IMG/VR virus record: IMGVR_UViG_3300043432_000237 | Coordinates: 32,001 to 96,000 of that record | DNA length: 64,000 nt | Strand: one strand, 5' to 3' | Source: a virus | Lineage: Duplodnaviria; Caudoviricetes | Shown here: piece by piece, positions 242 to 22,194 of the stretch | Position numbering within the stretch: the stretch's first letter is position 1 | Layout: each line of letters begins with the position of its first letter | Translations under genes and position numbers: made by a program | Notes under the pieces: model-generated | What the model was told of the DNA's origin: nothing | Seen by the model: only the letters and a program-made list of their open reading frames with translations | Database searches by the model: none

Positions 242-715
242 ATGGAACAGCAACTGCATCTGGATCAACTCGCCGGCTACCTCACGCGCACCGACGCGCT
301 GCTACAGCTGACGAAGCAGCAAGCGACTTCTCTGTCTCCCGAGACGCAGGCCGCGCTGGCTGCGCTGGAGGCCGAGCGTGCAGCGTGGCCGGAGTGGGAC
401 ATCGGGTCGATGACGTGCAATACCGGAGCGCAGAAGCAGCTGCCCTGGGCGCTGCCCGCAACGGTGGAGGTTTCGGCTCCCACCGACAAACCCTTCCTGG
501 TGAGCGAGGTGGACTTCGGTAATGCACCGGTCAACGTGGACGTGCGCGCCCCGGGTCAGCTCAAAGCGTTTGCCACGGGCTCGGGCGTAATCAGTTGCTG
601 GTGCGTGTTGCCCCCAGGCGAGAAGCTCACGCTGAGGATCACGCCCCAGGTGCCGGGGGCTCAGCTCACGAGTCTGCCCGTCGTGAAAGGCTACCCTCTC
701 GGCCGCGCCGAGTAG
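242..715 (+). CDS. Coiled-coil plus beta-sandwich protein, candidate minor jelly-roll structural protein
   Basis: SD AAGGAG before ATG 242; helical N-terminus then beta-rich end VLPPGEKLTLRIT...VVKGYPL resembling 15415 and 35209 ORFs. Confidence 0.55.
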   Translation: MEQQLHLDQLAGYLTRTDALLQLTKQQATSLSPETQAALAALEAERAAWPEWDIGSMTCNTGAQKQLPWALPATVEVSAPTDKPFLVSEVDFGNAPVNVDVRAPGQLKAFATGSGVISCWCVLPPGEKLTLRITPQVPGAQLTSLPVVKGYPLGRAE

Positions 716-767
716 CACGTGTCCGAAAGTTTGGGTGGCAGAATGATGCCAGGTAACCTCCTGGGTC

Positions 768-1382
768 ATGTCGGCAGTTGGCCTGCGTAGGCTCTCACCC
801 GTCCTCACGCTCCTGAACACTCCAGGTTTCGATCTGGAGGGCATCAACACTCATGAGCTGCCGGACGGAGCGATTTGCTACTGCGCAGAAACGAAGTGCG
901 ACTTTCAGCTCGACCTGACGTCCACGGCTGCAGCAGTGGTGGGTGCGGTCGTTGTGCCGCTGTCCGGACCTGGACGCTGGAAGTCTGCAGCGCCTTCGGT
1001 GCAAGGCAGCTCGACCGTGTTCCGGCGCTCGGACTTCACTCCGCTGACGACGCCGAGCAATGTCCAGGCCACGCTGTTCTCCTTTGCCCTGGATGCCTAC
1101 CAGGACGGCACATACGACCTGGGCATCCTGGTGCAGCTGCGCAACGAGGCAACGGGTGACACGGCATCCTACCGGCGCGTGGCAACCTTCAAGGTCGTCG
1201 CAGGCGTGGTGACGCAAGTGTCGACCACCGACGCGACGTACGACAAGGTGGACGCAGCGCTGGCCGCGTGCGTGGTGACCATCGACACGAGCGGCGGCGA
1301 CGCGCGTGTGCAGGTGACCGGCTTGCTCGCGACGCCGCTGACCTGGACAGGTGGGTACGAAAGCGCGCTGACGCTCTACTAG
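768..1382 (+). CDS. Putative spike/fibre protein with shared N-terminal domain
   Basis: N-terminal ~70 aa (GLRRLSP...ELPDGAIC.C.ET.CD.QL...GPGRW) closely similar to ORF 19522; Thr/Val beta-rich C-terminus. Confidence 0.6.
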   Translation: MSAVGLRRLSPVLTLLNTPGFDLEGINTHELPDGAICYCAETKCDFQLDLTSTAAAVVGAVVVPLSGPGRWKSAAPSVQGSSTVFRRSDFTPLTTPSNVQATLFSFALDAYQDGTYDLGILVQLRNEATGDTASYRRVATFKVVAGVVTQVSTTDATYDKVDAALAACVVTIDTSGGDARVQVTGLLATPLTWTGGYESALTLY

Positions 1383-1392
1383 CCAGGTTCAC

Positions 1393-2694
1393 ATGCTGAG
1401 GATGTTCAACAACCTGGGCTGGTCTCCGACAGACGTCGCTGACCTCGTCTTTTGGGGTGACGCCTCCAAGGAGCTGCCCGGAGCAAGCGTGCTCTTCACA
1501 GACCGAAGCGGCAGTGGCAACCATGCTGTGGGTACCGGGACCGTGGGCACAACCGTGCAAAACGGTCTGCGCACGATGCGGTTCAACGGCACCACGGATA
1601 AGTTCGCCACACCCAACGTCGACTGGACCGCGGTCAACGCCTTCACGATCTGCACGGTGTTCAAGTCGAACAGTGTCGCCGTGGACCAAGCCATTTGCAC
1701 GAAGGGCTACAGCGGATACCCGTTTGCGTCAGAGGGGACGATGTTTTACATCGACACCTCTGTGTCTGCCGAGGTGAAGGGGGCGCAGTACAGCGCCGGC
1801 AACAACTTCAACGTCAAGGATCTGGACGCGGACAACGGACAGAGTTTTGCTGTGCGCTCGCAGCGCGTAAATCGAGCGTTGGCCGCAGCGTACCAGCAGA
1901 GCTTCACGCGCGATGGTGGCATCTGTTACGACCCGGTCACCTTTGGTGGCACCGCTGCGGCAGCCGGCCTCGGGAACAGCCCGATCTACATCGGCGTGCA
2001 CGGCAACGGGACCAACATCCCGCTCTCGGGAGACATCGCAGAGATCCTGATCTTCTCGCGTCGTCTGACCGACGACGAGCTGCGTCGGGTCGAAATGTAC
2101 TTGGGCATCAAGTGGGCGTTGCCGTACCGCTCCATCTATCCGCTCGGCAACTCCATCACGTACGGAGACGTGAACGACGGGTGGCGAGGCCCACTGATGG
2201 ACTCGAACCTGATCACGCTGGTCTCGCGAGGAAATCTCCTCGCCCCGGGCGTCTACCATCACGAAGGACACCCGGGTGCGGCGATTGCGTTCATCGACGC
2301 CAACATCACTGGCTACTGGAACTCTGCCCGAGGCAGAGAAATCCTGCTGACCATCGGCACCAATGACGCGCTTACTCCTGGTTTGCGCGCTGGCATGCTG
2401 GCTGCCTACGACACGCTGCTCAACACGATCGACGCGCTCTCGCCTGCGCCGTCGATCGTCTGGTGCGCGACGCTCACGCCCCTGGGTGACGCGCCGAGCG
2501 ACGCTGCGGTCAACACCTTCAATGCGGGTCTGCCAGCGGTGGTCGCCGGACACCCCAAGGCTCGCTACGTGGACGTAGGCTCGTGTCTGACCGTGGCTGA
2601 CCTGGCGGACTTCATCCACCCGACGCCTGCCGGATTCTTGAAGATGGGCCAGCGTTGGGCCAACGTCCTGAACGGCCTGGTCATCCCGCCCTGA
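1393..2694 (+). CDS. LamG/ConA-like lectin domain fused to SGNH/GDSL esterase
   Basis: LamG-type ending IYIG...LSGDIAEILIFSRRLTDDELRRVEMYLGIKW; SGNH blocks PLGNSITYG, IGTND, DFIHP. Confidence 0.8.
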   Translation: MLRMFNNLGWSPTDVADLVFWGDASKELPGASVLFTDRSGSGNHAVGTGTVGTTVQNGLRTMRFNGTTDKFATPNVDWTAVNAFTICTVFKSNSVAVDQAICTKGYSGYPFASEGTMFYIDTSVSAEVKGAQYSAGNNFNVKDLDADNGQSFAVRSQRVNRALAAAYQQSFTRDGGICYDPVTFGGTAAAAGLGNSPIYIGVHGNGTNIPLSGDIAEILIFSRRLTDDELRRVEMYLGIKWALPYRSIYPLGNSITYGDVNDGWRGPLMDSNLITLVSRGNLLAPGVYHHEGHPGAAIAFIDANITGYWNSARGREILLTIGTNDALTPGLRAGMLAAYDTLLNTIDALSPAPSIVWCATLTPLGDAPSDAAVNTFNAGLPAVVAGHPKARYVDVGSCLTVADLADFIHPTPAGFLKMGQRWANVLNGLVIPP

Positions 2695-2753
2695 GCGCTC
2701 ACGTGTCCGAAAACTTGAGGCGGCTGGCGCAGGACCCGTACAGTGCCAGGTGA

Positions 2754-3287
2754 ATGCAAAACCGCCTGGAGCTGTCGCCGCCAACCGTGACGCGCCCCTT
2801 CCGCGGGCCCGAGGACACCGTGCGCGAAATGGTGCGCGCGGTGCTGGGGCCGCGAGGCGAGCGCTCGATGCTGGTGCGCACGATGACCGAGCAGTGCGTG
2901 CACCTGCTGCAGGACAAGGACTACCAGAGCGAGCTAATCGCCATCCGCAACTTCGTCGCCACCAAGGGTCGTTACACCAACGACTCACTGGGCGTCGAGG
3001 TGGTGAAGGATCCGCAGCGCCAGGTGGAAGAGATCCTGGCCCGCGGTGTGACCGTCGGCGACTGCGACGACTGCGCCACGCTGATTGCCACCATGTGCCG
3101 CCAGGTGGGCCGCGAGGCCGAGTTCGTGACGGTGGGCTTCGGCTCCCCGAACACCTACTCGCACGTGTTCACGCGCGTGCGCGAGCCCAAGAGCAAACAG
3201 TGGATCGTGCTGGACACGGTGGCGGGTAGCGACGAAGCCAAGATGCTCCGTCGGGTGACGACCTGGCGAGCATGGAGGATTGACTGA
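2754..3287 (+). CDS. Transglutaminase-like cysteine enzyme (candidate maturation protease)
   Basis: GDCDDCA (Cys), YSHVF (His), WIVLD (Asp) in transglutaminase-core order and spacing. Confidence 0.8.
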   Translation: MQNRLELSPPTVTRPFRGPEDTVREMVRAVLGPRGERSMLVRTMTEQCVHLLQDKDYQSELIAIRNFVATKGRYTNDSLGVEVVKDPQRQVEEILARGVTVGDCDDCATLIATMCRQVGREAEFVTVGFGSPNTYSHVFTRVREPKSKQWIVLDTVAGSDEAKMLRRVTTWRAWRID

Positions 3288-4051
3288 TGAGCTACGTTGC
3301 TGTCGGAGCCCTTACGCGCGTGTCCACCATCAACGCCCCCGCGGTACCGGTCTCGAACCCGTCGGCTGGGCAGGCCAGTAGTTTCAAGACGCGCATGACG
3401 ACGTACAGCGCACCGCCGCCGCCGCCCGCTGCCGCCCCGACCAACCAGGTCGAGTTCGGCGTGCCCATGCAGAAGACGGTGCAAGCCCCCCAGGCCACGG
3501 TGCAACAGGTAGTGCCAGTGCCCCAGGCCGTGTTGCAGCAGGCGGTTCCGGTCGCGGAAGCCTCGGTGCAAAAGGTGCCTAGTCTGCCCGTGCAGCCCAC
3601 GGTTACGCCGCCGCCCTCCAGCTGGTCGCCGCTCCAGGCGCCCGTCAAAGTCGAGGTGCCCGCGCCCGCGCCCAAGTTGTCCCCCATCAGCTTGGGCTTG
3701 CAGTACGCGCTCATTCCGCCGCCGGCCGCGCCGGCCGCGCCGGCCGCGCCGCGGGCTGCTCGTCGGCCAGCTCCGGCTCCGGCTGCGCGCCCGAGCGCAG
3801 GCAGCTGGCTGAGCCGCCCGGCCGCGCCGCTGGTGCCGCCGGCCGTGATGAGCTACCTGCCGGGCGCCAGCTGGTCAGCGGCGCCGGCTCCCGTCATCAC
3901 CAACACGCAACAGGTGACGCTGCCGCCGTCGGTGCGCGAGCCATCCGAGGCTCCTGCTGGCATGAGCAAGCGTGACTGGATGATCGCGGGGTTGATCGGA
4001 CTCGTCGCAGTGGGTGCGGCGGCCGTGTACGTGAAGCAGAAGAAAGGCTGA
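3287..4051 (+). CDS. Pro/Ala-rich tail-anchored membrane protein
   Basis: Low-complexity stalk, C-terminal TM WMIAGLIGLVAVGAAAVYV plus KQKKG. Confidence 0.75.
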   Translation: MSYVAVGALTRVSTINAPAVPVSNPSAGQASSFKTRMTTYSAPPPPPAAAPTNQVEFGVPMQKTVQAPQATVQQVVPVPQAVLQQAVPVAEASVQKVPSLPVQPTVTPPPSSWSPLQAPVKVEVPAPAPKLSPISLGLQYALIPPPAAPAAPAAPRAARRPAPAPAARPSAGSWLSRPAAPLVPPAVMSYLPGASWSAAPAPVITNTQQVTLPPSVREPSEAPAGMSKRDWMIAGLIGLVAVGAAAVYVKQKKG

Positions 4052-4056
4052 GAGCA

Positions 4057-4491
4057 ATGTTGGGTCAGACAGGTTTCATGGTTCCGGGGCCGACGGCCTA
4101 CAGTCCGCCGCGCGGATTCCCCACGTGCGTGCCGGCCGATCGCAAGGCGCTCGCCGAGTACGCCTGCAAGCGCTACCAGACCGTCAAGGGACTGGGCACG
4201 GTGGCCGATCCGTACGCGGTGGCCCCCGCCTGCTACGTCGCGGCCATGCCGACCTGTGCGCCGACGCTGGTGCGCAGCTCGTTCCCGACGGCGCAGCTCA
4301 GCACGTCCGTCCTGAACGCCCTGCGGACGCCACCCGTCCTGAACACCGAGCCGCAGCCCATTCCGCCGCCCCCGGCGCCCGCTCCGTCGAGCAACAAGGC
4401 GCTGGTCGTCGGTGGCATTCTGGCCGCCGCGCTGGTCGTCGGCGGTGGCTACCTGGTCTACAAGTCCAGGAAGAAAACCGCAGCCGCCTGA
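4057..4491 (+). CDS. Tail-anchored membrane protein
   Basis: 4 Cys, KGLGT motif, C-terminal TM plus KSRKK. Confidence 0.75.
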   Translation: MLGQTGFMVPGPTAYSPPRGFPTCVPADRKALAEYACKRYQTVKGLGTVADPYAVAPACYVAAMPTCAPTLVRSSFPTAQLSTSVLNALRTPPVLNTEPQPIPPPPAPAPSSNKALVVGGILAAALVVGGGYLVYKSRKKTAAA

Positions 4492-4543
4492 CTTTTTGGG
4501 TCACCCGACCCAGAGTGATAGGCTGCACGAGACAGGAGACAGA

Positions 4544-5194
4544 ATGACGGCTTTCCCCAATCAGCCCATCGGTGGCCGGCTCCCGACGATGTGGGAGGTC
4601 GGCCCGAGCGACTTGCGCTACTCGTCGAGCACTGCGCCGGCCATGCAGACCCAGATCGATCGGGCGCACGGGCGTCATCTCGCCGGGACCGACGACCAGG
4701 TCCAGGACGAGGCCGCCGATCAAGGCATGGCCAAGAACGAGCTGGACTACTACGCGCAGATGGACGACGTCCAGGGCGCGGGCGTGTTCGATCCGCCGGG
4801 TAGTCATGGCAACATCCACCCCGACGCCGGGATCTTCACGGCGCGGTTCGACGTGCCGGGCTACCTCGCCCGCGAGCGCTTCAACCGCCCGAGCGAAGTC
4901 ATCGACGCCACCACGGGCCGCCCGACGATCTACGTCAACGGCGGCGCCGTGGCGATGGACGACAGCGCGCGCGTGGCGTTCATCGAGAACGATCAGTACC
5001 AGACGCCGCAGCCGGTACTGGACTCGCTGGCCGAGCACCGCATGCCGGGCCGCTCGACCGTCAACGTCCAGCAGAACCCGCAAGCCATCGGCGCCGTCTC
5101 GCAGCCGATGAGCGGGATCAAGCTGTTCGCGATCACGGCCGCTGTCGGCCTGGCCGCGGGCGCCGCCTACGCGGCGTTCCGCAAGAAGAAGTGA
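4544..5194 (+). CDS. Tail-anchored membrane protein
   Basis: SD AGGAG before ATG 4544; C-terminal TM plus RKKK. Confidence 0.75.
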   Translation: MTAFPNQPIGGRLPTMWEVGPSDLRYSSSTAPAMQTQIDRAHGRHLAGTDDQVQDEAADQGMAKNELDYYAQMDDVQGAGVFDPPGSHGNIHPDAGIFTARFDVPGYLARERFNRPSEVIDATTGRPTIYVNGGAVAMDDSARVAFIENDQYQTPQPVLDSLAEHRMPGRSTVNVQQNPQAIGAVSQPMSGIKLFAITAAVGLAAGAAYAAFRKKK

Positions 5195-5200
5195 GCGCCA

Positions 5201-5479
5201 ATGGACTGGGAGCAGGCAGCAGCTGGGACCGGGGACTATCACAGCTACCCGATCACGCCGGGCGTGGGCGACGTCTACAGTGACGCCGCGGTCAGCCAGG
5301 CGCGCGCCATTTGGGGTGCGCTCAGCGTCGCGGGCGCTGCTGCCAGTGCCTACCACGGCTACAAGCGCACGCAGAGCGTCGGCTGGGCGTTCGTGTGGGC
5401 GCTGTGCGGCTCGATCGCTCCGGTCGTCACCGTGCCCGTGGCCATCGCGCAGGGATTCGGCAAGCCGAAGCGAGGGTGA
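5201..5479 (+). CDS. Small two-TM membrane protein
   Basis: Two hydrophobic helices around AYHGYKR; ends GFGKPKRG. Confidence 0.7.
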   Translation: MDWEQAAAGTGDYHSYPITPGVGDVYSDAAVSQARAIWGALSVAGAAASAYHGYKRTQSVGWAFVWALCGSIAPVVTVPVAIAQGFGKPKRG

Positions 5480-5485
5480 GCGGAG

Positions 5486-6937
5486 ATGGCGTTCTATCGG
5501 GTGCTGGTGGCAGAAAACGGTCGCATGCGCGAAGCAGGCGAGGTGCGCCTTGTGGAGCGTGCCAGCAACGCCGAGCTGGAGCGCGTGCTCGCCGACATAT
5601 CAGTCTTCGCGCCCCGGGGACAAGACCGAGTGAAGTGGACCGCAGAGGGCGCCACCATCACGGATGCGCACGGCGACCTGGTGGTACTGAAGAAGGTGGA
5701 GCGCATGAAGGCCAATGCAATGCGGATCCGTAAAGACTGTGCGCACTGTGGTCACCACATGTCGGCGCACCGGTACGACCCGGCAGTGCGCGGCGGTCCG
5801 CAACGCTGCTCTGTGCATGGGTGCCGCTGCACGGTGTTCGAGCGCGCAGCGAAGGGCGCGAGGAAAGTGAAGTTGGAGGCCAACGTGCGCAAGCAGCACT
5901 TTGCTGGGTACGACTTTTCCTCGGGTCCCGAAGGAACGGTAGTGCATCGTCCGCATGCGTCAGAGCTGCGCAGCGGCGATCGGGTCAAGTACAAGGACGT
6001 GAACCTGACCGACCAGGGCACAGTCGTATCGGCATCCGGTAAGTGGGCAGAGGTGCGTTGGGACCGATACCCGAACACTGCCACCAGAGAGTGGGCAGAC
6101 AATCTGAAAGTAGTGTCTCAGATGAACCGAAACTCACGTCACGCTCAGCTCGACTCGCGCACGCGCGAGATCGCCGAGACCGCTCCCATCCTGAACGACG
6201 GCGAGTTCGACTGGAAGGGCGAGGAGGGGCTGCTGCGCATCTGGATGGGCCAGCACGCTCCGACCTTCCTGTACTACTTCGGCAGCAGCGTCGAGGACGC
6301 TTTCGAGGAAGCGGTCGAATGGGCCGATGACCACGCTCCGGGCTTGCTGTTTATGCTGGGGCTCGAAGAGTACAAAGGAGCGGCCGAGGACGAGGGCATC
6401 GAGTGGAACGACGCCTGGCCGGACTTCGAGGACCCGGACTTCCAGCGAGTGGTCGATGCTGCCGAAGCAGACATGACTATCATCGGGCACACCACGCTCA
6501 AGAACGGCAATGCGGTACCAAGCTGGGAGTGGGGAGTCGACGAGATCCACGGCGAGGAGCGCGAGATCGTGACCGCGCGCGCCGCGCCGTACACGTACCG
6601 CATGACCTACGAGATCGTGACCCCGGAGAGCGCCGAAGATGGTGACGCCGCGGAGCGTGGGTGGGAAGTCGAGGAGCCCGCCGGACCCTTCTCACTCGAA
6701 GACCTCGTGCGGGAGGTCAACGATCACACCTGGGTCGAGTGGTCGAACAGCAACCCCACGGGCCAACGGGGCGAGTGGCTGATCAGCGAAGCGGAGCAGA
6801 ACTACTCCACCGGCGAAGACACCAGCTACCACCTGTTCATCGAACGGGTGGACGGGAAGCCGCTTTCCACGGCAGAGATCAAGGACATCAGCAAGGCGCT
6901 CGGTGTCTCGACGTTCGGCATGATGTTTCGGACCTGA
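5486..6937 (+). CDS. Multidomain polyprotein-like protein
   Basis: Unrelated-looking segments (Cys/His Zn-finger, SH3-like barrel, acidic domains) separated by MKAN, LEAN, MNRN. Confidence 0.7.
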   Translation: MAFYRVLVAENGRMREAGEVRLVERASNAELERVLADISVFAPRGQDRVKWTAEGATITDAHGDLVVLKKVERMKANAMRIRKDCAHCGHHMSAHRYDPAVRGGPQRCSVHGCRCTVFERAAKGARKVKLEANVRKQHFAGYDFSSGPEGTVVHRPHASELRSGDRVKYKDVNLTDQGTVVSASGKWAEVRWDRYPNTATREWADNLKVVSQMNRNSRHAQLDSRTREIAETAPILNDGEFDWKGEEGLLRIWMGQHAPTFLYYFGSSVEDAFEEAVEWADDHAPGLLFMLGLEEYKGAAEDEGIEWNDAWPDFEDPDFQRVVDAAEADMTIIGHTTLKNGNAVPSWEWGVDEIHGEEREIVTARAAPYTYRMTYEIVTPESAEDGDAAERGWEVEEPAGPFSLEDLVREVNDHTWVEWSNSNPTGQRGEWLISEAEQNYSTGEDTSYHLFIERVDGKPLSTAEIKDISKALGVSTFGMMFRT

Positions 6938-6940
6938 GGA

Positions 6941-9039: not shown

Positions 9040-9049
9040 GAGAGCGACC

Positions 9050-15221: not shown

Positions 15222-15230
15222 TCCCACACG

Positions 15231-15354: not shown

Positions 15355-15414
15355 CCGCTCAGACCCTTTGATCCTCAACTCCCAGCCCTCGCCTGAGCGA
15401 GCACGGGGTTTCCC

Positions 15415-16365
15415 ATGAACGTCAATCAGCAGCTCTTGAACCAGCTCAACGCCGCGGCGCAGAACGCCCGCGTCGCATTCGAGCGCGCCGCCCGCGCCGA
15501 ACAGCAGGGCCAGGCCTTGTACGCCCAGGCATCGCAGCTCGCCGGTGAGCTGGAGGCCATGAAGCGCGTCGTCGCCAACCTCGAAGTCTCGCGCTCCGGC
15601 GCTCCGGCTTCCATCCAGCGGGTGGAGAACATCCCGGGCCGACGCATCCCGTTCGATGCACTGGTCGACATCGCCATCGGTGACTCGGTGCAGTCGGTGC
15701 AGCAGGGCTCGATCACCATCTCGCAGGAAGGCCCGTTCGTGGGCGTCAGCCGCGTGATGGCGCTGCTCAGCACGTTCGAGTTCCAGTACCGCGATCCGGT
15801 CTCGGGCGCCGCCAGCGCCTTCCAGGGTCGCTCCTACGGCCGCTACCGTCCCGCGCACAGCGCCTGGGACCTGAACGACAGCATGGTCTCGCCGCAGGTC
15901 TCGCAGGCCGTGGGCTTCCCCGGCACCGGCGCGCCGCACGTGACCAGCCCCGGCACGGCGTCCAGCTTCCGCTCGATGGAGGGCGACTTCCGCATCATCG
16001 TCGAGAACGCCGGCTCCAGCTTCCCGCGCTCGAACCAGGAGGTCCCCTCGGCGTTCTGGTCGCGCGCCATCAACGAGCCCTTCGAGCTGGGCGCGCTCGA
16101 CGTCTTCGAGCGTGGCGAGGTCATCGTCTTCAAGGTGCTGCCGCTGCACCCGAACAACCCGAGCTACGGCAACCTGAGCGCGTTCGGCGCGCCCAACGCC
16201 AGCTTCCCGTTCGTGACGGCCGGCTTCGATGCCGTCGAGGGCGTCAACGACCAGAACGACGCGAACGCCTCCACGACCGATCCCGTGACGCGCCTGGCGA
16301 ACGCCATCGTCACGATCGGCTACCACGGCTACCGCATCATCCAGCAGCCGGGTCTGCCGGGCTGA
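15415..16365 (+). CDS. Candidate second capsid protein (coiled coil plus jelly-roll)
   Basis: N-terminal coiled coil; SITISQEGPFV; ends VFERGEVIVFKV...IGYHGYRI. Confidence 0.55.
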   Translation: MNVNQQLLNQLNAAAQNARVAFERAARAEQQGQALYAQASQLAGELEAMKRVVANLEVSRSGAPASIQRVENIPGRRIPFDALVDIAIGDSVQSVQQGSITISQEGPFVGVSRVMALLSTFEFQYRDPVSGAASAFQGRSYGRYRPAHSAWDLNDSMVSPQVSQAVGFPGTGAPHVTSPGTASSFRSMEGDFRIIVENAGSSFPRSNQEVPSAFWSRAINEPFELGALDVFERGEVIVFKVLPLHPNNPSYGNLSAFGAPNASFPFVTAGFDAVEGVNDQNDANASTTDPVTRLANAIVTIGYHGYRIIQQPGLPG

Positions 16366-16436
16366 GGCGTGCCGACCGAGAGGGTCACCGGAGGGATTGC
16401 GAGCCTCCGGTGGCCATTTCGAGGTAGGCTCACACC

Positions 16437-17312
16437 ATGACGGACTACCGCAACCAGCTGTCGTCAGCCTTCCAGCTCCCGAGCATGGGTCATGTGCCGC
16501 GCGACGCCGGAGGCCCGCTCGGTCCCGGTGGTGGAGCGCACCCTGCGCCGAGCGCTCAGGCTGCGCCGCACCCGGAGCCCGCGCCGGACTTCGTGCGCAC
16601 GGTCGCAGCCGGCGGCGCGCTGCCCGAGCTGTTGCTGCACCCGACCTTCCTGCCCTTCGAGAACTTGTTCCGGCGGCTGCCGGAGGAGGCGATGTTCAAC
16701 GCCTCGCCCGACCGCCCCTACAAGTTCGAGCTGGGCGCGTTCGAGGTCCCCAAGAACCAGGCGCTCCTGCTCGCCGACTTTCGGTTCGCGCTGCATCGCT
16801 TGAGCGGCGCCGCCGCCTCCGACACGGTGCCGATGGAGCCCGAGCGGCTGAGCATGCTGCTGGCGTTCGATCTCACGATCGCCAACAACCGCAAGGCGCA
16901 GCTGCGCATGGAGATCGATCCGGTCACCATCCAGGCACAGAAGGAAGCCTTCCAGAGCCAGGTGTCGGGCGGCACGATCTTCCCCGGCGCGCGCACGGGC
17001 GGCTCTGCGCTCAGCCCGGCCAACAACCTGCAGTACGCGCTCTCGCGCTTCGCGCAGTCGGTGGTGCCGGGTGGCCTGGGCCTCTCGGGCTTGCCGAACC
17101 GCCCGCGCCGCCTGGGCGCCGAAGACTTGCCCTTCACGATGGTCGCCGTCGAGACCCAGCGCGTCCAAGCGAGCTGCGTGGTCTTCCGGCCCATCCCCAT
17201 CCCGATCGCGTTCTTCCAGTGCGACATTTCGGGAGTGCTGATGAGCATGAACACGATGCGCGCGCTCTTCGATGCAGTGAAACCTGCCGTCGAGCGTGGA
17301 GGCATCCGATGA
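16437..17312 (+). CDS. Candidate third jelly-roll structural protein
   Basis: ELGAFEVPKNQALLLADFRF; ends QRVQASCVVFR...QCDISGVLM; capsid gene context. Confidence 0.5.
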   Translation: MTDYRNQLSSAFQLPSMGHVPRDAGGPLGPGGGAHPAPSAQAAPHPEPAPDFVRTVAAGGALPELLLHPTFLPFENLFRRLPEEAMFNASPDRPYKFELGAFEVPKNQALLLADFRFALHRLSGAAASDTVPMEPERLSMLLAFDLTIANNRKAQLRMEIDPVTIQAQKEAFQSQVSGGTIFPGARTGGSALSPANNLQYALSRFAQSVVPGGLGLSGLPNRPRRLGAEDLPFTMVAVETQRVQASCVVFRPIPIPIAFFQCDISGVLMSMNTMRALFDAVKPAVERGGIR

Positions 17313-17430
17313 CTTGGGAAAGCGACCGGCCCATGGAGCCCGCGAGCGTTGCAGCGGATCGGACAACTGCTGCAGCGAGCACGAGCCTTCCGGCTTGGGC
17401 CGGTCGTTTCTCCATTCGTGAGGTGAGCTG

Positions 17431-18180
17431 ATGGCCCTGGGAGCATATTTCCGAGCAGTCGAGAGTCAGCCGATCCCGGAGCCGCAGCTGGACGGGCTGG
17501 GCTCGCAGGATCAGTTCGCGGTCGAGGCGTTGCAGGAGCTGCTGGAGGCACAGGGTATCCGGCCTGCGGCGGCGATGGCGCCCTGGGGCATCCAGGAGGG
17601 CAGCGTCGACTGGCAAGCCGAGCACCCGGACCACAGCCTGCTGCTGTATCCGATCAGCGATGGCCTGCTGACGCAGGTCGAGAAGTCGACCTTCGGCATG
17701 CCCGTGCCGGCCGTCGCGATCTTGACCACCACGCCCGTCGTGCTGGCCAAGGCGCGCGAGGCCTACGACGATACGCCGTACCGCTTTCACGCCGTCGAGG
17801 GCGTCTACCGCCTGGACGACAAGAAGCCGGTGCCGACGATCTACTTCCTCTACTGGGGTCACTACCGCGAGCCCAACGACAGCGGAGGTGGCCGCTCGGC
17901 GCTGCAGAGCGTCGCGTCCATGCTCGGCGGCTCGCTCGTCTTCCCGTTGCAGCTGCCGCGCACCGGCCAGGAGCGCCAGCACCCGTCGGTGACCTTCCAG
18001 CTCGCCCTGGCGGCGCAGCTGAGCGGCCAGCCGGCGGCAGCGCTGCCGCCGACGGCGGTGCCCAGCGCGCTGGCACCCAGTGCCGCCCCGGCGCCTAGCG
18101 CGGCCTGGTGGCTGCTCCCGGTGGTCGGCGGGCTGGCCGCCTATGGCGGCTACCGCTGGTGGAAAGGACGCAAGAGCTGA
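17431..18180 (+). CDS. Tail-anchored membrane protein
   Basis: MALGAYFR, DGLGS; TM plus RWWKGRKS. Confidence 0.7.
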   Translation: MALGAYFRAVESQPIPEPQLDGLGSQDQFAVEALQELLEAQGIRPAAAMAPWGIQEGSVDWQAEHPDHSLLLYPISDGLLTQVEKSTFGMPVPAVAILTTTPVVLAKAREAYDDTPYRFHAVEGVYRLDDKKPVPTIYFLYWGHYREPNDSGGGRSALQSVASMLGGSLVFPLQLPRTGQERQHPSVTFQLALAAQLSGQPAAALPPTAVPSALAPSAAPAPSAAWWLLPVVGGLAAYGGYRWWKGRKS

Positions 18181-18329
18181 TGGCCAAGATCGTTGCTATC
18201 TCGGGCACCGAGCCCCAACCCAACCAGGCGGCACTCATGAGCGCAGCAGCACTCGGATGGACGGTCGTGCTCGGCGTGACCTTCTACATCTTCTGGAGCA
18301 CGGCCAAGCCGGCCCGCAAGCGGAGGTAG
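18180..18329 (+). CDS. Small membrane protein
   Basis: Coupled start; single TM plus KPARKRR. Confidence 0.65.
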   Translation: MAKIVAISGTEPQPNQAALMSAAALGWTVVLGVTFYIFWSTAKPARKRR

Positions 18330-18332
18330 ATC

Positions 18333-18548
18333 ATGATCTCGCTCACCGATCTGGGAACCGTGGCCGACGTCGCCCAACAGGTCGAGGCCAACCCCTTCAT
18401 GCTGGCGGGCCGTCTGATCGGCCTGAGCGGTGACGAGCAGAAGGCGGGCGTGCCGATGTGGGCGTGGGTCTCGCTGGCGTTCGTGGGCGGAGCAGTCGCG
18501 ACGCTGAAGTACGGTCCGCAGATCCGCGCCAAGCTCAAGCAGCTCTGA
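18333..18548 (+). CDS. Small tail-anchored membrane protein
   Basis: SD GGAGG; TDLGT; TM plus basic end. Confidence 0.7.
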   Translation: MISLTDLGTVADVAQQVEANPFMLAGRLIGLSGDEQKAGVPMWAWVSLAFVGGAVATLKYGPQIRAKLKQL

Positions 18549-18600
18549 TTTTTGGAGGTCGAGCAGACCTTTGATAGCGTCGGACCTGGAGCCACTCAAC

Positions 18601-18942
18601 ATGTACCAGCCAACCAGCAAAGCAGACGGGATCTTCTCACACGGTGTGGGTCCGAGCTACGCCTACGGCGCGCAGCGAACGGCGCACGCAGACGGCTCGC
18701 TCGGCGAGTACGCCTACGGCGCGCGCACCTCTTCGTTCGCGGACGGATCACTGGGTGGCTGCAGCAGCTGCTCGGGCATGGGCGCCCTGACGCCCGAGCT
18801 GGCGACCAAGGTGTTGTCCGCGATGCAGCCGCAGTTGCCCGCTGCACCGCCGATGTCACCGGTGGTGCGTGGTCTGCTCATCGGCGGCGGCGTGCTGGTC
18901 GTGGCCGCCATCGGCTACGCCGTGATGAAGAAGAAGGGATGA
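18601..18942 (+). CDS. Tail-anchored protein with internal YAYGA.....ADGSLG repeat
   Basis: Two YAYGA/ADGSLG units, SGMGA, TM plus MKKKG; start may be TTG 18571. Confidence 0.7.
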   Translation: MYQPTSKADGIFSHGVGPSYAYGAQRTAHADGSLGEYAYGARTSSFADGSLGGCSSCSGMGALTPELATKVLSAMQPQLPAAPPMSPVVRGLLIGGGVLVVAAIGYAVMKKKG

Positions 18943-18946
18943 GGTC

Positions 18947-19216
18947 ATGGCGCTAACGAATAGGTGCCTGAGCGGTCTCGGCGCGGCGTTCATCGAGATG
19001 CCCCGCGCCCGCCTCGGGTTCCGCGCGGGCGGCGTGTTCTCGCCGCGCGCTTCGGCCGCCGAGTACAAGCCGAGCCTGGGTGAAGTGCAGGCCGTGACGG
19101 AAAGCGCCAGCTCGATCGAACAGCGCCAGGAGAAGCAGAAGCTGCTGCTGGTGACGAGCCTGGCCAGCCTGGCCGTCGGCGCCGCCATCACCTACGCTGT
19201 GATGAAGAAGAGCTGA
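18947..19216 (+). CDS. Small tail-anchored membrane protein
   Basis: SGLGA, PSLGE; TM plus MKKS. Confidence 0.7.
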   Translation: MALTNRCLSGLGAAFIEMPRARLGFRAGGVFSPRASAAEYKPSLGEVQAVTESASSIEQRQEKQKLLLVTSLASLAVGAAITYAVMKKS

Positions 19217-19221
19217 CCGCC

Positions 19222-19515
19222 ATGCAAGACGGTATCTTTCTCTCGTCTCCCACGCGGGGAACGCTGCCCACGTCGCGCAACGCGCTCATTGTGGCTCAGC
19301 GGCCGACTTCGCTGGGCCGAGTCAACTCGGCCGGCGTGGCCCTCACGTTCGGTGTGTTCGGTTTGGTGCTGGCCGGAGGAGCCTACGGGGGCTACCAGCT
19401 GGGTAGGCGTTACAAGCATCCCCTGGTGGGCGCCGCCGCGGGTGCTGCCGTCGCGTACGTCCCCGCCTGGATGGCGGGTGCTGTCACTGCGCTTCTCACG
19501 ATGGGCAGCGTGTGA
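19222..19515 (+). CDS. Small multi-TM membrane protein
   Basis: TSLGR then Gly/Ala-rich hydrophobic helices. Confidence 0.65.
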   Translation: MQDGIFLSSPTRGTLPTSRNALIVAQRPTSLGRVNSAGVALTFGVFGLVLAGGAYGGYQLGRRYKHPLVGAAAGAAVAYVPAWMAGAVTALLTMGSV

Positions 19516-19521
19516 GGATCC

Positions 19522-20964
19522 ATGCAAGACGCTGGAATCGGGCTCCGCCGACTCTCCCCTCGCGACACCCTGGCCGGCGATCCGGGCGGGAGCATAACCG
19601 GCGTCAGCACCTACGAGCTGCCCGACGGAGCGATCTGTTGGTGTGTCGAAACGCAGTGCGACTACCAGTTGCACAAGAGTTCCACGACAGCGGCTGACGG
19701 AGTCTACGTCGTGGCGCCGGCCGCTGGCCCTGGTCGCTGGTTTCAACTGGCAGTGGGGAACAACGTGCTGGTGCAGCCGAGCTGGTACGTCAACGCGGTC
19801 ACTGGTTCAGACGCCAACGACGGCACGACGGCGCTGACCCCGCTGCTCACGTTGGCGGAGCTGTACCGTCGAACGGTGGGCAAAGTGTTCGCCGTGAACG
19901 CTACGGTGTACCTGAGTGGTGACTTCAGCGCAGAGGCACTGGTGCTGGACGCCTGCGTCGCGCCGGGGGTGCAGGTCACGGTGCGCGGTGAAGTCCGACA
20001 GGACGGCAGTTACTCTGTCGGGGCGTATACCGCGTACAACGGTGCAACGAGCACTCCGGCGGTAGTGAGCGACGGCGGAGCGACCGCATACGCTGGCGAC
20101 GTGGGCAAGATCGCGCGGATGACTTCGGGAGCGGCAATCAACTGCTCTGCTCCGATCATGAAGGCGACGGCCGCTGGAGCGTTCCGACCTGGACACTTCC
20201 AGTCGGTGGACTACGTGACGATGGCTCCGGGCGTCGGCGACACCTACGTGGTCGAGGAACTGCTCACCAAGGTAGGGACCATCCAAACGCGCATGAGCGG
20301 CAGCGGTGGAGACTACTCGGTCTATGCCCCGCGCCTGCTCGTGCGGGACCTGGATGTGTACCCGCCGGCAAACACGCCTCAAGACCTGTCGTTCAACGCA
20401 GGCGACGCGAGCGGAGCGGGCACCTTGCTCTACCGCGTGCGTCTGTCCGGTGGCGCCCTGGGCAATGTGTGGCTGACCGGTAGCGGGGTCCAGCTGCTCT
20501 GCACGTACTCCAAAGCCGATTGCTATCTCACCGTCGCCGGTTCAGCGCTCTACTGCTGGGGCTTCGTGGCGATGGGCGGGCTGCAGGTCAACAACAGCAT
20601 CTTGAATGTCCCCTTTGACATGATGCTGGTACAGGGTCACGCGGTTTACTTCTACGGAGGCCAAGTCGCCGCAGTCGCAGGCATCGGGTTCCTGGACATC
20701 GGAGCCGGCGACGGTGCCGGGCTGATCGTCAGCACCGGAGCCAACGTCGAGGCATCCGCCGGGACGTCGTACCTCTGGAGCAACGGAAACCTGTGCGCGT
20801 ACGGTATCCGAGTAGGAGCAGGATCGATGGTCACCTACGGAGTGAAGCCGACGGCCACCGGCGTCACGAACGACACGCTAGTCGGCGGGACCGCCAAGGC
20901 CTATGCCGCGATCCCCTACTTCGAGGCCGCCAACGGCGCGGGCATCGTGGTCTACCAGGGATAG
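19522..20964 (+). CDS. Putative receptor-binding spike (shared N-domain plus beta-helix-like body)
   Basis: N-domain paralogous to ORF 768; WYVNAVTGSDANDGTTALTPLLT is a typical beta-helix entry motif. Confidence 0.65.
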   Translation: MQDAGIGLRRLSPRDTLAGDPGGSITGVSTYELPDGAICWCVETQCDYQLHKSSTTAADGVYVVAPAAGPGRWFQLAVGNNVLVQPSWYVNAVTGSDANDGTTALTPLLTLAELYRRTVGKVFAVNATVYLSGDFSAEALVLDACVAPGVQVTVRGEVRQDGSYSVGAYTAYNGATSTPAVVSDGGATAYAGDVGKIARMTSGAAINCSAPIMKATAAGAFRPGHFQSVDYVTMAPGVGDTYVVEELLTKVGTIQTRMSGSGGDYSVYAPRLLVRDLDVYPPANTPQDLSFNAGDASGAGTLLYRVRLSGGALGNVWLTGSGVQLLCTYSKADCYLTVAGSALYCWGFVAMGGLQVNNSILNVPFDMMLVQGHAVYFYGGQVAAVAGIGFLDIGAGDGAGLIVSTGANVEASAGTSYLWSNGNLCAYGIRVGAGSMVTYGVKPTATGVTNDTLVGGTAKAYAAIPYFEAANGAGIVVYQG

Positions 20965-21019
20965 AGCAGCCACCGAACCCTTGGCAGCGCCAGGCGCCCA
21001 GTGATAAGTCACCAGGCAG

Positions 21020-21610
21020 ATGGCCAATGAGCTGTTCGAGGCGCTGAGCAAGGTTGCGTTCTCCCTGCAGGGCTTGCCGCGCGGCTCACTGGGTGGCCCG
21101 GTCTGGGAAGAGCTGAAGCCCTGGCTGGAGAAGTTGATGTCACACGCGGCGCCCAAGTGGTTGCCGCGCCTGAGCTTCGCGTTCCCCTGCCAGGTGGCTG
21201 TGCATCGACAGGGCGTGCCCATTGGGCCCTGTCCGCACCGGGCCATCGCGAGCTGCGACGTCTGCGGTGGCGCCTGCTGCCTGCACCACGCGCGCATCGA
21301 CCAGCTGGGCGACGCCATCTGCTACCCGTGCGTGGCGCGCGCTGTGGCGGCACACCGTGGCGGCGGCGCACCTCCGGCGCCCCCTCCGCGCAGCAAGGCA
21401 GAAGAGCTGCGCTGGGCCCGCAAGCTGCTCAAGGTCAAGCCGGAGGACGACTGGGAGACCATCCGCGCGGCGCACCGGCGCGAGAGCGGAAAAACCCACC
21501 CGGACCGGCAGCGCACCGACAAGGCCAAGGCCAAGGCCACCGAGCGCTTCAAGCTGGTGCAGCAGGCGTTCGAGGTGCTCAAGCTCGAACACGGCCCCAA
21601 GACGGGCTGA
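21020..21610 (+). CDS. Zn-finger plus J-domain (DnaJ-like) co-chaperone
   Basis: Cys/His cluster; IRAAHRRESGKTHPDR...ATERFKLVQQAFEVL with HPD motif. Confidence 0.8.
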   Translation: MANELFEALSKVAFSLQGLPRGSLGGPVWEELKPWLEKLMSHAAPKWLPRLSFAFPCQVAVHRQGVPIGPCPHRAIASCDVCGGACCLHHARIDQLGDAICYPCVARAVAAHRGGGAPPAPPPRSKAEELRWARKLLKVKPEDDWETIRAAHRRESGKTHPDRQRTDKAKAKATERFKLVQQAFEVLKLEHGPKTG

Positions 21611-21658
21611 CGTTCAGGTTTTTGGTCGATGGCCGAGCCGGGTGGTAGCCTGACCTCC

Positions 21659-21868
21659 ATGAGCTACGGATCGCTGGGTGAGAGCTACGCCATCACGCTG
21701 CCGGTGGTGGGGCACACCTCCATGGAGCTGCCGGTCCAGAAAATCACGCACGACGCCATGAGCTACGCGCTGGAGGATCTCAAGCTCCGCGTCAAGGCGA
21801 AGCTGCCGGTCGTGATCGGTGTCGGTCTGCTCGGCGTGGCCGGCTATCTCGTGATCAAGAGGATGTGA
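21659..21868 (+). CDS. Small tail-anchored membrane protein
   Basis: MSYGSLGE; TM plus KRM. Confidence 0.65.
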   Translation: MSYGSLGESYAITLPVVGHTSMELPVQKITHDAMSYALEDLKLRVKAKLPVVIGVGLLGVAGYLVIKRM

Positions 21869-22194
21869 TGAGCTACGTGAACACCAGCAGGCCGTACTAC
21901 GAGCAGTTCCAGATCGACACGCCCCTCGAAGAGGGCACGATGGGCTGGTCGCGCGCTCCCTGGCCCGGGTGGGGTCAGAACGCCAACCTGATCGGTCCCA
22001 AGCAGATCGCGGTCGGCTCCAGCCCTGACGGACTCGGTGCGTACTACCGGAACCAGGAGAACCGCGCGATCGGCCAGGACGCTGGCTCGGGCGGTGGTGC
22101 GCTGGTGGTCGTGATGTTCGCGTGCGCGGTGGTCGGCGGGCTGGTGCTGCTCGGCAGCATGCGCGAGATCGGCAAGCAGCCGCGTCGTCGGTGA
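21868..22194 (+). CDS. Tail-anchored membrane protein
   Basis: DGLGAYYR, RAIGQ; TM plus KQPRRR. Confidence 0.7.
   Translation: MSYVNTSRPYYEQFQIDTPLEEGTMGWSRAPWPGWGQNANLIGPKQIAVGSSPDGLGAYYRNQENRAIGQDAGSGGGALVVVMFACAVVGGLVLLGSMREIGKQPRRR

Follow-up and report, generated by a model that had tools for sequence, protein, structure and literature searches.

The 242-22194 block of the DNA analysed here is, in our reading, the centre of a virion-morphogenesis module of about 33 kb, which builds the particle of a non-tailed membrane virus lineage; we put the probability of this reading at roughly 55%. The stretch analysed, hereafter the window, comprises 64,000 nucleotides and sits in a 125,036-bp virus genome that was assembled as a circle. 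Gene content, conservation, membrane topology, one fold model and the absence of hallmark genes are the evidence for this reading, and it has to be weighed against a membrane virion of another architecture, a very divergent tailed phage, a non-viral element and an enlarged member of a known tailless virus order.

Results

GC3-based gene calls place 27 of the 28 genes at 2754-22194 on the + strand, which agrees with the co-orientation described in an earlier note on this DNA; the features described below at 1-222, 768-22194 and 22606-27788 are all on that strand. The conserved module is wider than 242-22194: its left edge lies some 5.5 kb upstream of the window and its right edge near window position 27800. 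The 36 genes common to all three full relatives are mostly those of this module together with DnaB and DnaC, and several independent complete genomes of 125-180 kb carry the same core. Among the proteins of the genome that were scanned, PHROG or Pfam matches fall to replication, lysis, sugar-modification and integrase genes, and in the Pfam record of window 5.4-26 kb the entries are DnaJ, a weak match to BubE and a GT4 glycosyltransferase only. The cargo named in the earlier note is all present: three tRNAs, a tmRNA that scores 88 bits in Rfam, and a MoxR-like ATPase, which is accessory and found in two of five relatives. A bacterial host is indicated by the tmRNA, DnaB/DnaC, a beta clamp and peptidoglycan hydrolases.

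Small membrane proteins dominate the block. A hydrophobic segment is present in 22 of the 38 gene products examined at 242-26149, and 15 products there are strictly tail-anchored, with a single C-terminal helix followed by Lys/Arg. Gly/Ala-rich C-terminal anchors in the products starting at 8668, 11106 and 17431 bring the total to 18-19 by hydropathy, close to the 19 or so small membrane proteins counted earlier. By an automatic criterion, 14/28 genes in the block are tail-anchored against 7/142 outside it (Fisher p=2e-8), and the excess is kept in relatives (7/22 vs 5/130, 8/21 vs 2/146 and 9/26 vs 5/129, block vs elsewhere). Because they have no signal peptides, these are not expected to be exported surface proteins. 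Hydropathy scans show a run of them at 3287-9039 (starts 3287, 4057, 4544, 5201, 6947, 7546, 8030 and 8668), each with an N-terminal part rich in Pro/Gly and a single helix at the C terminus before a Lys/Arg end; an acidic soluble 483-aa protein (5486-6937) breaks the run. Most of these sequences are beyond the reach of phmmer in relatives; the tail-anchor feature is nonetheless kept. Further along are a 273-aa protein with two transmembrane helices by hydropathy (9050-9871), two proteins conserved as a pair, one tail-anchored of 112 aa and one soluble of 191 aa (9885-10795), which distant relatives retain too (L040 and L048), and a 104-aa protein that has an N-terminal helix and is followed by a 367-aa one anchored at its C terminus (10792-12209). 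At 17431-19515, a 249-aa C-terminally anchored protein precedes small membrane proteins starting at 18180, 18333, 18601, 18947 and 19222 (17431 and 18333 are conserved in relatives), and two tail-anchored proteins of 79 and 108 aa, the second conserved, lie at 21629-22194.

The basic core protein proposed earlier corresponds to a 593-aa protamine-like product (12506-14287), with 141 Lys/Arg in 593-596 aa and a 35-aa tandem repeat (105 bp, at 13088-13387). About 370 aa containing the 141 Lys/Arg and the repeats are followed by two to three hydrophobic helices and an acidic Gly-rich tail. The gene is syntenic across all relatives, and the L040 version has 162 Lys/Arg in 803 aa; its composition suggests a candidate membrane-tethered DNA-condensing core protein. 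A 177-aa transglutaminase-like (papain-type Cys) protein (2754-3287; PF01841, 34.3 bits against a cut-off of 23) is the second most conserved core gene (1.28 bits/aa across relatives) and is homologous to the structural protein gp34 of phage SSIP-1 (phmmer 1e-7; BLASTP 4e-10, 24% identity over 135 aa). A conserved 862-aa protein, a core gene in all three compared relatives, starts 2366 bp upstream of the window and ends within it (1-222). Alignment of four orthologues shows a conserved N-domain, then a coiled coil of about 300 aa rich in Glu/Arg/Lys, a stretch rich in Pro/Gln and, last, a small C-domain. The protein has no PHROG match and no significant PDB match, and is a candidate scaffold or tape-measure protein. 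The core gene at 21020-21610 encodes a 196-aa DnaJ protein with a Cys-rich N-terminal part and a C-terminal J-domain (PF00226), a candidate for bringing in host Hsp70, either for assembly or to insert the tail-anchored proteins. The block continues downstream at 22606-27788 with a 204-aa protein, a 446-aa glycosyltransferase-like protein, a GT4 glycosyltransferase and a 226-aa protein (phrog_2170 and Pfam GT4 families), which are core in relatives.

Spike-like candidates, also expected from the earlier note, occur at three loci. The 433-aa product of 1393-2694 combines ConA/LamG-like (PF13385) and SGNH/GDSL esterase (PF13472) domains, matches phrog_10356 ('virion structural protein') and is not kept in relatives; neither is the 480-aa Gly/Ala/Thr-rich product of 19522-20964. 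The latter is similar to the 204-aa product of 768-1382 (BLASTP E=1e-24), with 57% identity over the first 70 residues, which suggests a common virion-attachment domain at the N terminus of two exchangeable spike or fibre proteins. Elsewhere, accessory genes common to tailed phages include a phrog_1645 virion protein (cyanomyoviruses, HMO-2011), and a fibre-like cassette with Ig-like domains resembles tail-tip proteins.

Three adjacent beta-rich genes follow the basic protein and, as described earlier, are real and conserved; the order basic protein, 250, 316 and 291 aa is retained at identities as low as 33% and in a relative with 51% GC. The 250-aa protein (14469-15221) is the product of the genome's most conserved gene (1.78 bits/aa across relatives), and it, the transglutaminase-like and the 316-aa proteins are all within the four most conserved genes. 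Its family has 686 homologues with a length constant near 250 aa, the best 120 of the 686 at an identity of at least 71%. It has no match in Pfam, PHROG or the PDB. A language-model lead gives PM2 P2 and PRD1 P3 as its nearest named clusters, at only 0.75-0.77, and 43 members of the family have no match to Pfam P2 or P3. We regard it as a candidate major capsid protein, and as the best capsid candidate of the genome.

The 316-aa protein (15415-16365) has 604 homologues, with identities of at least 53% among the best 120 listed, and is the sole protein that was modelled. The AlphaFold2 model, of moderate confidence (pLDDT 67.7, pTM 0.58), has a 58-residue N-terminal helix and an 8-strand jelly-roll-like sandwich at residues 74-316. 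Helix followed by beta-sandwich is the layout of trimeric fibre heads too. The Foldseek comparison advised in the earlier note ranks SPV1 first in the PDB, then PR772/PRD1 P3, PBCV-1 and SH1, and the matches in BFVD are single-jelly-roll capsid proteins, SPV1 VP4 included; the top fold matches are capsid proteins from membrane-containing viruses. The family has tandem paralogues in distant relatives (three copies in L039, four in L040), and jelly-roll capsid genes are duplicated in helvetiaviruses too (PMC8812541). On the model, the protein is a candidate second capsid or vertex protein. The gene of the conserved 291-aa protein (16437-17312) is always directly 3' of it. Profiles of the 250- and 316-aa families had no match among PDB sequences, a set that may not hold P23-77 or SH1; entries of both turn up in fold searches.

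Paralogy of the 250-, 316-, 291- and 249-aa families found no support, with profile-profile probabilities below 2%. Neither was a shared ending pattern confirmed among the three adjacent beta-rich proteins and the products of 242-715 and 35209-35655, as all pairwise BLASTP E-values of the five exceed 0.3. No homologue of the 242-715 product turned up in the nine related loci or the three related genomes, nor one of the 35209-35655 product in those three genomes. The earlier suggestion of several single-jelly-roll candidates is not supported: it has one modelled protein behind it, that of 316 aa, and the paralogy proposed for the five was not borne out.

PHROG or Pfam scans covered about 90 proteins of the 125-kb genome, including every ORF above 400 aa and nearly all above 250 aa, and gave no match to terminase, portal, HK97 capsid or tail proteins, nor to an FtsK/A32 ATPase; the same four tailed-phage families (PHROGs, Pfam) are matched by 0/10 of the block's largest proteins. 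Six-frame Pfam scans of five genomes (three complete) were negative for PF03354, PF04466, PF04860 and PF05065, and that of the element's own genome for PF03237; the control genomes, which comprised no far-diverged tailed phage, gave signal. The search for terminase, portal and HK97 capsid genes, whose presence the earlier note would take as refutation, was in this way extended to the whole 125-kb genome and four relatives, three complete, and found none. The FtsK/HerA packaging ATPase sought alongside, or one of the A32 type, is absent from all five genomes searched. A canonical Walker A motif occurs only in DnaB, DnaC, the accessory MoxR-like ATPase and one relative's kinase-like gene; the SNF2 helicase has a variant GKT motif instead. 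Four genomes contain no unassigned ORF with a Walker A motif, and DnaB is the only Walker A protein, or P-loop NTPase, common to all four compared genomes. To our knowledge, a bacterial virus this large without a packaging motor would be unprecedented.

Discussion

The block may instead encode a membrane virion of another architecture, externally enveloped, pleomorphic or non-icosahedral, in which the 316-aa protein and its paralogues are spike, lectin or fusion proteins. Sequence does not reveal where a membrane lies, trimeric attachment proteins typically combine a helix with a beta-sandwich, the module's two glycosyltransferases and the sugar-modification cluster suggest glycosylated surface proteins, and a missing packaging ATPase fits assembly by wrapping or budding. 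We nevertheless consider this unlikely: conservation of the 250- and 316-aa proteins greatly exceeds what is usual for attachment proteins, the spike-like genes that vary lie elsewhere (1393, 768 and 19522), and shell proteins rather than fibres head the fold matches. A very divergent tailed phage, with hallmark genes that escape profiles and membrane proteins serving lysis, superinfection exclusion or host takeover, is quite unlikely. Related clusters are automatically labelled Uroviricota, accessory virion proteins are common with tailed phages, Ig domains resembling those of tail tips occur in a 566-aa protein upstream of the window, and capsid and portal proteins of novel phage clades often escape HMMs. 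A terminase, however, requires a P-loop ATPase of at least 400 aa, for which the four genomes have no unassigned Walker A ORF; the only large protein conserved lineage-wide is the coiled-coil protein; and the fibre-like cassette and phrog_1645 gene are missing in relatives, that is, accessory. About half of the genes in the most conserved block are tail-anchored, to which we know of no parallel in tailed phages and found none in the open-access papers searched.

That the element is a large plasmid or other non-viral mobile element, with the block building a cell-envelope or vesicle structure, is very unlikely. The capsid is a candidate only, the searches turned up no packaging enzyme, genes for an integrase, ParB and DnaB/DnaC are present, and the element is known solely from metagenomes and MAG bins. 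Yet the same core recurs in several independent complete genomes, an endolysin and a lytic transglycosylase are encoded, and there are homologues of annotated virion components of cultured phages (SSIP-1 gp34, phrog_1645 and phrog_10356); the protamine-like protein adjoining extremely conserved jelly-roll-like proteins is a virion signature, and the tail-anchored proteins, having no signal peptide, are not exported surface proteins. The kinship with Halopanivirales put forward in the earlier note was not supported. The side-by-side position of two conserved beta-proteins that differ in size (250 and 316 aa) would suit an enlarged true member of Halopanivirales/Helvetiavirae (the P23-77 and SH1 lineage). 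Against it, the FtsK/HerA ATPase that unites that lineage (PMC8812541) is missing, solved chains show no similarity at the sequence or profile level, paralogy between the two proteins is not detectable, and double-jelly-roll capsids and SPV1 match the fold equally well or better, which makes membership most improbable.

For the non-tailed membrane virus that we favour, the best functional analogue is Sulfolobus polyhedral virus 1, an archaeal virus of the Portogloboviridae (SPV1), with a match too weak to claim common descent. SPV1 has a single-jelly-roll shell, an internal membrane, many small membrane or membrane-spanning subcapsomer proteins, and circular DNA that a basic protein condenses into a nucleoprotein core; it encodes a glycosyltransferase as well as a methyltransferase, lacks a packaging ATPase (PMC8459092, PMC8812541), and so matches the building plan read here from genes alone. 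Sequence and profile comparisons find no resemblance to it, and the lineage described here has a bacterial host, genomes 6-9 times larger (125-180 kb vs 20 kb), its own replication and lysis genes, and a core protein candidate that is 593 aa long and membrane-tethered. SSIP-1, a cultured internal-membrane phage (PMC6356626), is the only cultured virus with detectable homology, through the transglutaminase-like domain of gp34. It shares a structural block in which tail-anchored proteins, with Gly-rich helices and ends that contain Lys, are numerous, and a basic structural protein anchored at its C terminus (gp41, with 50 Lys/Arg in 290 aa). In contrast, no SSIP-1 protein is matched by the 250- and 316-aa families (HMM E >0.005, hhalign probability <=7%), its virion P-loop protein gp40 has no counterpart here, and its genome is three to four times smaller. 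Halopanivirales/Helvetiavirae (Thermus phage P23-77, haloarchaeal SH1 and HHIV-2) are likewise tailless with an internal membrane and two adjacent unequal capsid genes, but differ in the ATPase, profile and paralogy features weighed above and in their 17-31 kb genomes. PRD1 (Tectiviridae) and PM2 (Corticoviridae) also have many small virus-encoded membrane proteins among their structural genes, and vertex spikes, besides the language-model proximity and the negative P2/P3 searches reported above; their genomes are 10-15 kb, they have the A32/FtsK ATPase missing here, and no double barrel was seen in any protein here.

From these genes we infer the existence of a particle, the internal position of its membrane and the role of each protein. 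The two highly conserved beta-proteins of 250 and 316 aa, at least the latter jelly-roll-like, would form the outer shell around a lipid membrane filled with 15-19 virus-encoded tail-anchored proteins, and the membrane-tethered 593-aa protein would condense the DNA core; exchangeable spikes would attach by their common N-terminal domain. Tail-anchored proteins may enter the host membrane post-translationally, the viral J-domain protein possibly bringing in host Hsp70. The long coiled-coil protein and the shell proteins could then mould a membrane patch around the nucleoprotein, with the transglutaminase-like enzyme processing or cross-linking components. Because DnaB is the sole P-loop NTPase common to the four compared genomes, the genome would probably be enclosed during condensation, as proposed for SPV1, and not pumped into a preformed shell. 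Most likely, then, the architecture is a jelly-roll shell, a lipid membrane and a protamine-like DNA core, and the lineage is one of widespread, uncultured bacterial viruses whose genomes, of 125-180 kb and circular or circularly permuted, have no tailed-phage genes.

Results

The window spans bases 32001-96000 of an IMG/VR virus record of 125,036 bp. The genome carries an exact 127-bp repeat at both ends (bases 1-127 and 124910-125036), an overlap of the kind that assembly produces when a molecule is circular or circularly permuted. Given that 127 bp is a common maximum assembler k-mer, the repeat shows a circular assembly, not necessarily physical terminal repeats. The GC content is 66% and, because high-GC DNA is full of spurious ORFs, genes were called by codon-position GC; for window 5.4-26 kb an independent stored gene call for the same contig agrees with these calls. 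DnaC, DnaB, dNMP phosphatase, RNase H and ParB are encoded upstream of the window, and the other genome arm holds an SNF2 helicase, a sliding clamp, sugar-modification enzymes and genes without an assigned function. Beside the block treated below, the window carries glycosyltransferases and methyltransferases, together with a lytic transglycosylase and an endolysin, an integrase and a MoxR-like ATPase. Nowhere in the genome could a DNA polymerase be recognised. An 882-aa protein (L003:12503-15151, in a stretch of this genome; genome 107503-110151, minus strand) shows, at residues 102-170, a weak ATPase motif of the GHKL (MutL/PMS2/histidine-kinase) type. The sugar-modification genes (L003:3259-9556 and window 50887-52068; an acetyltransferase fused to a methyltransferase-like domain, an aminotransferase and two nucleotide-sugar epimerases), together with two glycosyltransferases of the module (window 23536-26149), suggest glycosylated virion proteins or modified DNA.

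At window 2754-22194, 27 of 28 genes lie on the + strand, which bears out the co-orientation described in the earlier note, as does hydropathy for its approximately 19 small membrane proteins: 15 are tail-anchored and three (8668, 11106 and 17431, named by window start) have Gly/Ala-rich anchors slightly below the threshold. The 15 are classed as tail-anchored because each has a single hydrophobic helix at the extreme C-terminus, then a Lys/Arg-rich end, and no N-terminal signal peptide. By an automatic criterion, 14/28 genes in the block are tail-anchored vs 7/142 in the remaining genome (Fisher p=2e-8), and the three full-length relatives give 7/22 vs 5/130, 8/21 vs 2/146 and 9/26 vs 5/129. 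The proposed basic core protein is found at 12506-14287 (593 aa, 141 Lys/Arg), its composition suggesting the core role; within it lies a tandem repeat of 105 bp (35 aa, 2.4-2.7 copies), and hydrophobic helices follow. Spikes had also been proposed, and the product of the spike-like gene 1393-2694 indeed joins a ConA/LamG-like domain to an SGNH esterase and matches a PHROG 'virion structural protein' family. The products of 768-1382 and 19522-20964 are 57% identical across their first 70 residues (E=1e-24) with no likeness beyond, a pattern that would fit exchangeable attachment proteins with one common anchoring domain; the shared start is probably a virion-attachment domain common to interchangeable spikes.

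Nine IMG/VR loci, on contigs of 38-179 kb of which eight span 95-179 kb, and ten MAG contigs carry the module. Thirty-six genes are common to this genome and three full relatives (135, 138 and 179 kb), namely DnaB, DnaC, the integrase, a few genes without an assigned function and a continuous block at genome 26.5-59.8 kb (window -5455 to 27788). Conservation is highest of all genes for a 250-aa protein (14469-15221; 1.78 bits per residue), with values of 1.28 for a transglutaminase-like protein (2754-3287), 1.24 for a 174-aa protein and 1.16 for a 316-aa protein (15415-16365). The 250-aa family has 686 detected members of almost constant length, and the 316-aa family has 604 members in 114 clusters at 50% identity. 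Relatives whose 250-aa protein is only 33% identical still share one gene order: 112-aa, 191-aa, basic protein, 250-aa, 316-aa, 291-aa (16437-17312), (249-aa; 17431), J-domain protein. This order is also retained in L040, a distant relative's contig of 53.8 kb and 51% GC, in which the basic protein has 803 aa with 162 Lys/Arg and the 250-aa homologue has 214 aa. Directly after the 250-aa homologue, L040 carries four tandem 316-aa-family paralogues (L040:7565-11595; 256, 285, 276 and 253 aa), and the contig of another distant relative carries three (L039:142-3121; 319, 321 and 336 aa). Neither the window nor the 316-aa protein nor the 566-aa protein described below had a match among 50,697 GenBank phage records by megablast and tblastn, and a search of one paper library found no published description of the lineage.

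The earlier claim that terminase, portal and HK97 capsid genes are lacking, set beforehand as the refutation test, covered the window, half of the genome; we extended it to the rest of the genome and to four relatives (three rated complete), and the scans stayed negative. Among approximately 90 scanned proteins (every ORF >400 aa and nearly every one >250 aa) there was no match to a terminase, portal, HK97 capsid, tail or FtsK/HerA family, and no ORF >400 aa matched a PHROG terminase. Six-frame searches with the terminase families PF03354 and PF04466 were negative in all five genomes and positive in control genomes; PF03237, also positive in controls, was negative in our own genome, the only one searched with it. 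The portal and HK97 capsid families PF04860 and PF05065 were likewise negative in the five genomes, with controls responding, and PHROG head and portal families gave no match, to be read with the fact that these folds often escape sequence profiles; neither of two modelled proteins (316-aa and 566-aa) has a portal or HK97 fold. PF01580 and PF04665 (FtsK/HerA, A32) responded in the controls and were negative in the five genomes, the sole weak match being the P-loop of DnaB.

A scan of our own genome for the canonical Walker A motif returned DnaC, DnaB and the MoxR-like ATPase only, to which a looser GK[ST] scan adds the SNF2 helicase. In the three complete relatives it returned DnaB, DnaC in one, a kinase-like gene in a single genome and nothing else. 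DnaB alone thus has the motif in each of the four genomes compared (DnaC, also core, retains it in two), and none of these genomes has a Walker A ORF without an assignment. From the negative Pfam, PHROG and Walker A scans we conclude that neither known type of DNA-packaging motor is encoded. The MoxR-like ATPase was rejected as a motor, being present in only two of five relatives and missing from two complete genomes; this distribution also qualifies the earlier claim of jumbo-phage-type cargo, of which the tmRNA, the tRNAs and the MoxR-like gene itself were all found.

Upstream of the window, on the minus strand, lies a two-gene cassette (L001:7262-11898 in genome coordinates) for proteins of 566 and 975 aa. 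The 566-aa protein (genome 10198-11898, minus strand) has 3809 homologues, the best 120 at >=70% identity, and was considered as a terminase for this extreme conservation and a 'REWGKT' motif. It was rejected: its AlphaFold model (pLDDT 75) is all-beta with the motif within strands and with C-terminal Ig/CnaB-like domains resembling phage tail-tip and pilin proteins, and both cassette genes are missing from all three full relatives. We read the pair as a fibre-like cassette that is accessory and mobile rather than as a hallmark gene; it looks like a highly mobile fibre or appendage module common to unrelated viruses. An ESM Atlas search with the 566-aa protein gave no usable match; its family profile, and phmmer with four large ORFs, against PDB sequences gave nothing informative except the GHKL-ATPase motif of the 882-aa protein. 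A 421-aa protein (L004:2995-4260, in another stretch of this genome; genome 112995-114260, minus strand) matches phrog_1645 'virion structural protein' (E=4.5e-95) and is 32-42% identical to proteins of T4-like cyanophages (S-RIM8, S-SRM01) and podovirus HMO-2011; it was probably acquired horizontally, given that it is absent from the relatives.

Five beta-rich proteins (242, 14469, 15415, 16437 and 35209) had been put forward as single-jelly-roll candidates with the same ending pattern. Pairwise comparison found no significant similarity among them, and paralogy of the 250-, 316-, 291- and 249-aa families was rejected at profile-profile probabilities of <2%. Gene 242-715 has no homologue in nine related loci or three related genomes, nor does 35209-35655 in three related genomes. 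Of the five, the 316-aa protein was modelled, from 55 homologues, as a 58-residue N-terminal helix and then a single barrel of eight strands within residues 80-307 (pLDDT 67.7, pTM 0.58). Foldseek against the PDB ranks Sulfolobus polyhedral virus 1 (SPV1) first (E 7.6e-3), above PR772/PRD1 P3, PBCV-1 Vp54, SH1, picornavirus and nodavirus coats and ConA lectins. In a second structural alignment the scores are 6.7 for the SGIV MCP, 6.6 for PBCV-1, 6.5 for SH1, 6.4 for SPV1 and 6.1 for PRD1, with vaccinia D13 (5.8), HHIV-2 (5.7), STIV (5.6) and P23-77 VP16-VP17 (5.4) lower; the non-viral enzyme PHM also scores 6.4. BFVD matches are single-jelly-roll capsid proteins of small DNA viruses and SPV1 VP4. 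The model thus predicts a jelly-roll-like sandwich closest to viral shell proteins, a fold likeness that is no proof of kinship.

For the 250-aa protein, a language model places PM2 P2 and PRD1 P3 closest among named clusters, with scores that are often due to chance. When all 43 members of the family were scanned against Pfam (including P2 and P3) and PHROGs, an E cut-off of 10 yielded only recurrent weak matches to a GH127 sandwich domain and unnamed PHROGs. As for Bamfordvirae such as PRD1 and PM2, this weak lead stands beside the missing P2/P3 match and the single-barrelled 316-aa model. Profiles of the 250- and 316-aa families against PDB chains at E up to 10 returned nothing but coiled-coil noise. 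When the 250-aa protein was paired with residues 60-316 of the 316-aa protein in a complex prediction, the score was 0.00, which is evidence neither for nor against.

The tmRNA (88 bits), DnaB/DnaC, beta clamp and peptidoglycan hydrolases point to a bacterial host. The full-length tmRNA (Rfam) lies with tRNA-Gln, tRNA-Ile and tRNA-Arg at window 52505-57513, adjoining the tyrosine integrase (56224-57513). Its tag peptide as read by ARAGORN is atypical, Arg-rich and without the usual Ala-Ala end, so that the tmRNA may be non-standard or its tag mis-read. Outside virus records the 250-aa gene occurs on MAG contigs only (n = 10), with no isolate genome carrying it. Two of these contigs, at 106 and 123 kb, are virus-sized and therefore not integrated prophages. 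Of the ten, four were binned with Planctomycetota (Pirellulales twice, Phycisphaeraceae, Planctomycetota), a weak hint at this host given that viral contigs are binned by composition and coverage.

Discussion

We put at roughly 0.55 the probability that this block is the morphogenesis module of a virus lineage that has a membrane, no tail and an SPV1-like plan. SPV1, an archaeal portoglobovirus, is built of single-jelly-roll shell proteins, an icosahedrally shaped membrane and many subcapsomer and membrane proteins, and its circular DNA is wound with basic protein into a nucleoprotein core without a packaging ATPase (PMC8459092, PMC8812541). The present lineage likewise has no detected packaging ATPase and has a basic protein, conserved in synteny, whose composition suggests the same role, but its 250- and 316-aa profiles show no sequence homology to SPV1 virion proteins among PDB chains. 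By analogy, the closest functional combination would be SPV1, not the Halopanivirales. In such a virion, the 593-aa protein would condense the DNA and its helices would tether it to the membrane, into which the tail-anchored proteins would insert post-translationally, possibly with help from host Hsp70 and the conserved J-domain protein. Just upstream, a gene ending at window 222 encodes an 862-aa coiled-coil protein that could be a scaffold or size ruler, the transglutaminase-like enzyme may mature or cross-link components, and the 250- and 316-aa proteins would form the shell.

The cultured membrane phage SSIP-1 (44 kb, T=49, internal membrane) is thought to use two single-barrel capsid proteins (PMC6260650, PMC4958249, PMC6356626). 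Its structural block is similar in style, with approximately 8-9 proteins, including gp34, that have a Gly-rich C-terminal helix and Lys near the C-terminus, among them the basic structural protein gp41 (50 Lys/Arg). Only the structural protein gp34 is homologous, through a transglutaminase-like domain shared with 2754-3287 (phmmer 1e-7; BLASTP 4e-10, 24% over 135 aa; Pfam PF01841 at 34 bits). Unlike the present lineage, SSIP-1 has a virion P-loop protein, gp40, and hmmsearch, a widened profile and hhalign found no homologue of gp40, gp41 or gp45-47 among the capsid candidates.

A membrane virion of another architecture is an unlikely reading. A very divergent tailed phage is quite improbable: its portal and capsid might have slipped past the profiles, and the 421-aa protein has relatives in tailed phages, yet terminase searches that found their targets in control genomes found none in five genomes here. 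Still less probable is a non-viral element, a reading that the MAG-only occurrences might invite; the block encodes a spike-like protein with a virion structural match. True membership of the Halopanivirales, as the earlier note proposed, has very little probability left: the FtsK/HerA ATPase is missing from five genomes.

The fuller version of the SPV1-like reading is tentative and, as a whole, rather doubtful. It would make these large bacterial viruses, possibly infecting Planctomycetota, a lineage new at high rank (order level or above), with a virion assembled without a packaging NTPase. In it, 125-180 kb of DNA would be condensed by a protamine-like protein tethered to the membrane, and a jelly-roll shell and a membrane rich in tail-anchored proteins would close around this DNA: a bacterial counterpart of the portogloboviruses with a genome 6-9 times as large. 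New here are hallmark tests that cover the whole genome and several relatives, a defined set of core genes, the model of one fold, the tandem paralogues of distant relatives and the analogy with SPV1.

No large bacterial virus without a tail is known to us so far. According to reviews, icosahedral DNA phages in culture that contain a membrane have genomes of approximately 9-44 kb (PMC6260650, PMC6356626), a size limit that a widespread tailless membrane lineage of 125-180 kb would, if true, exceed. The family is large, with 600-700 homologues per core protein, and virus-detection pipelines apply a tailed-phage label by default, hence a whole morphotype may lie hidden in current catalogues. If the reading is true, the lineage would be a second and much bigger case of motor-free DNA packaging via nucleoprotein condensation, and would offer fresh material on the origin of jelly-roll capsids (PMC8812541).
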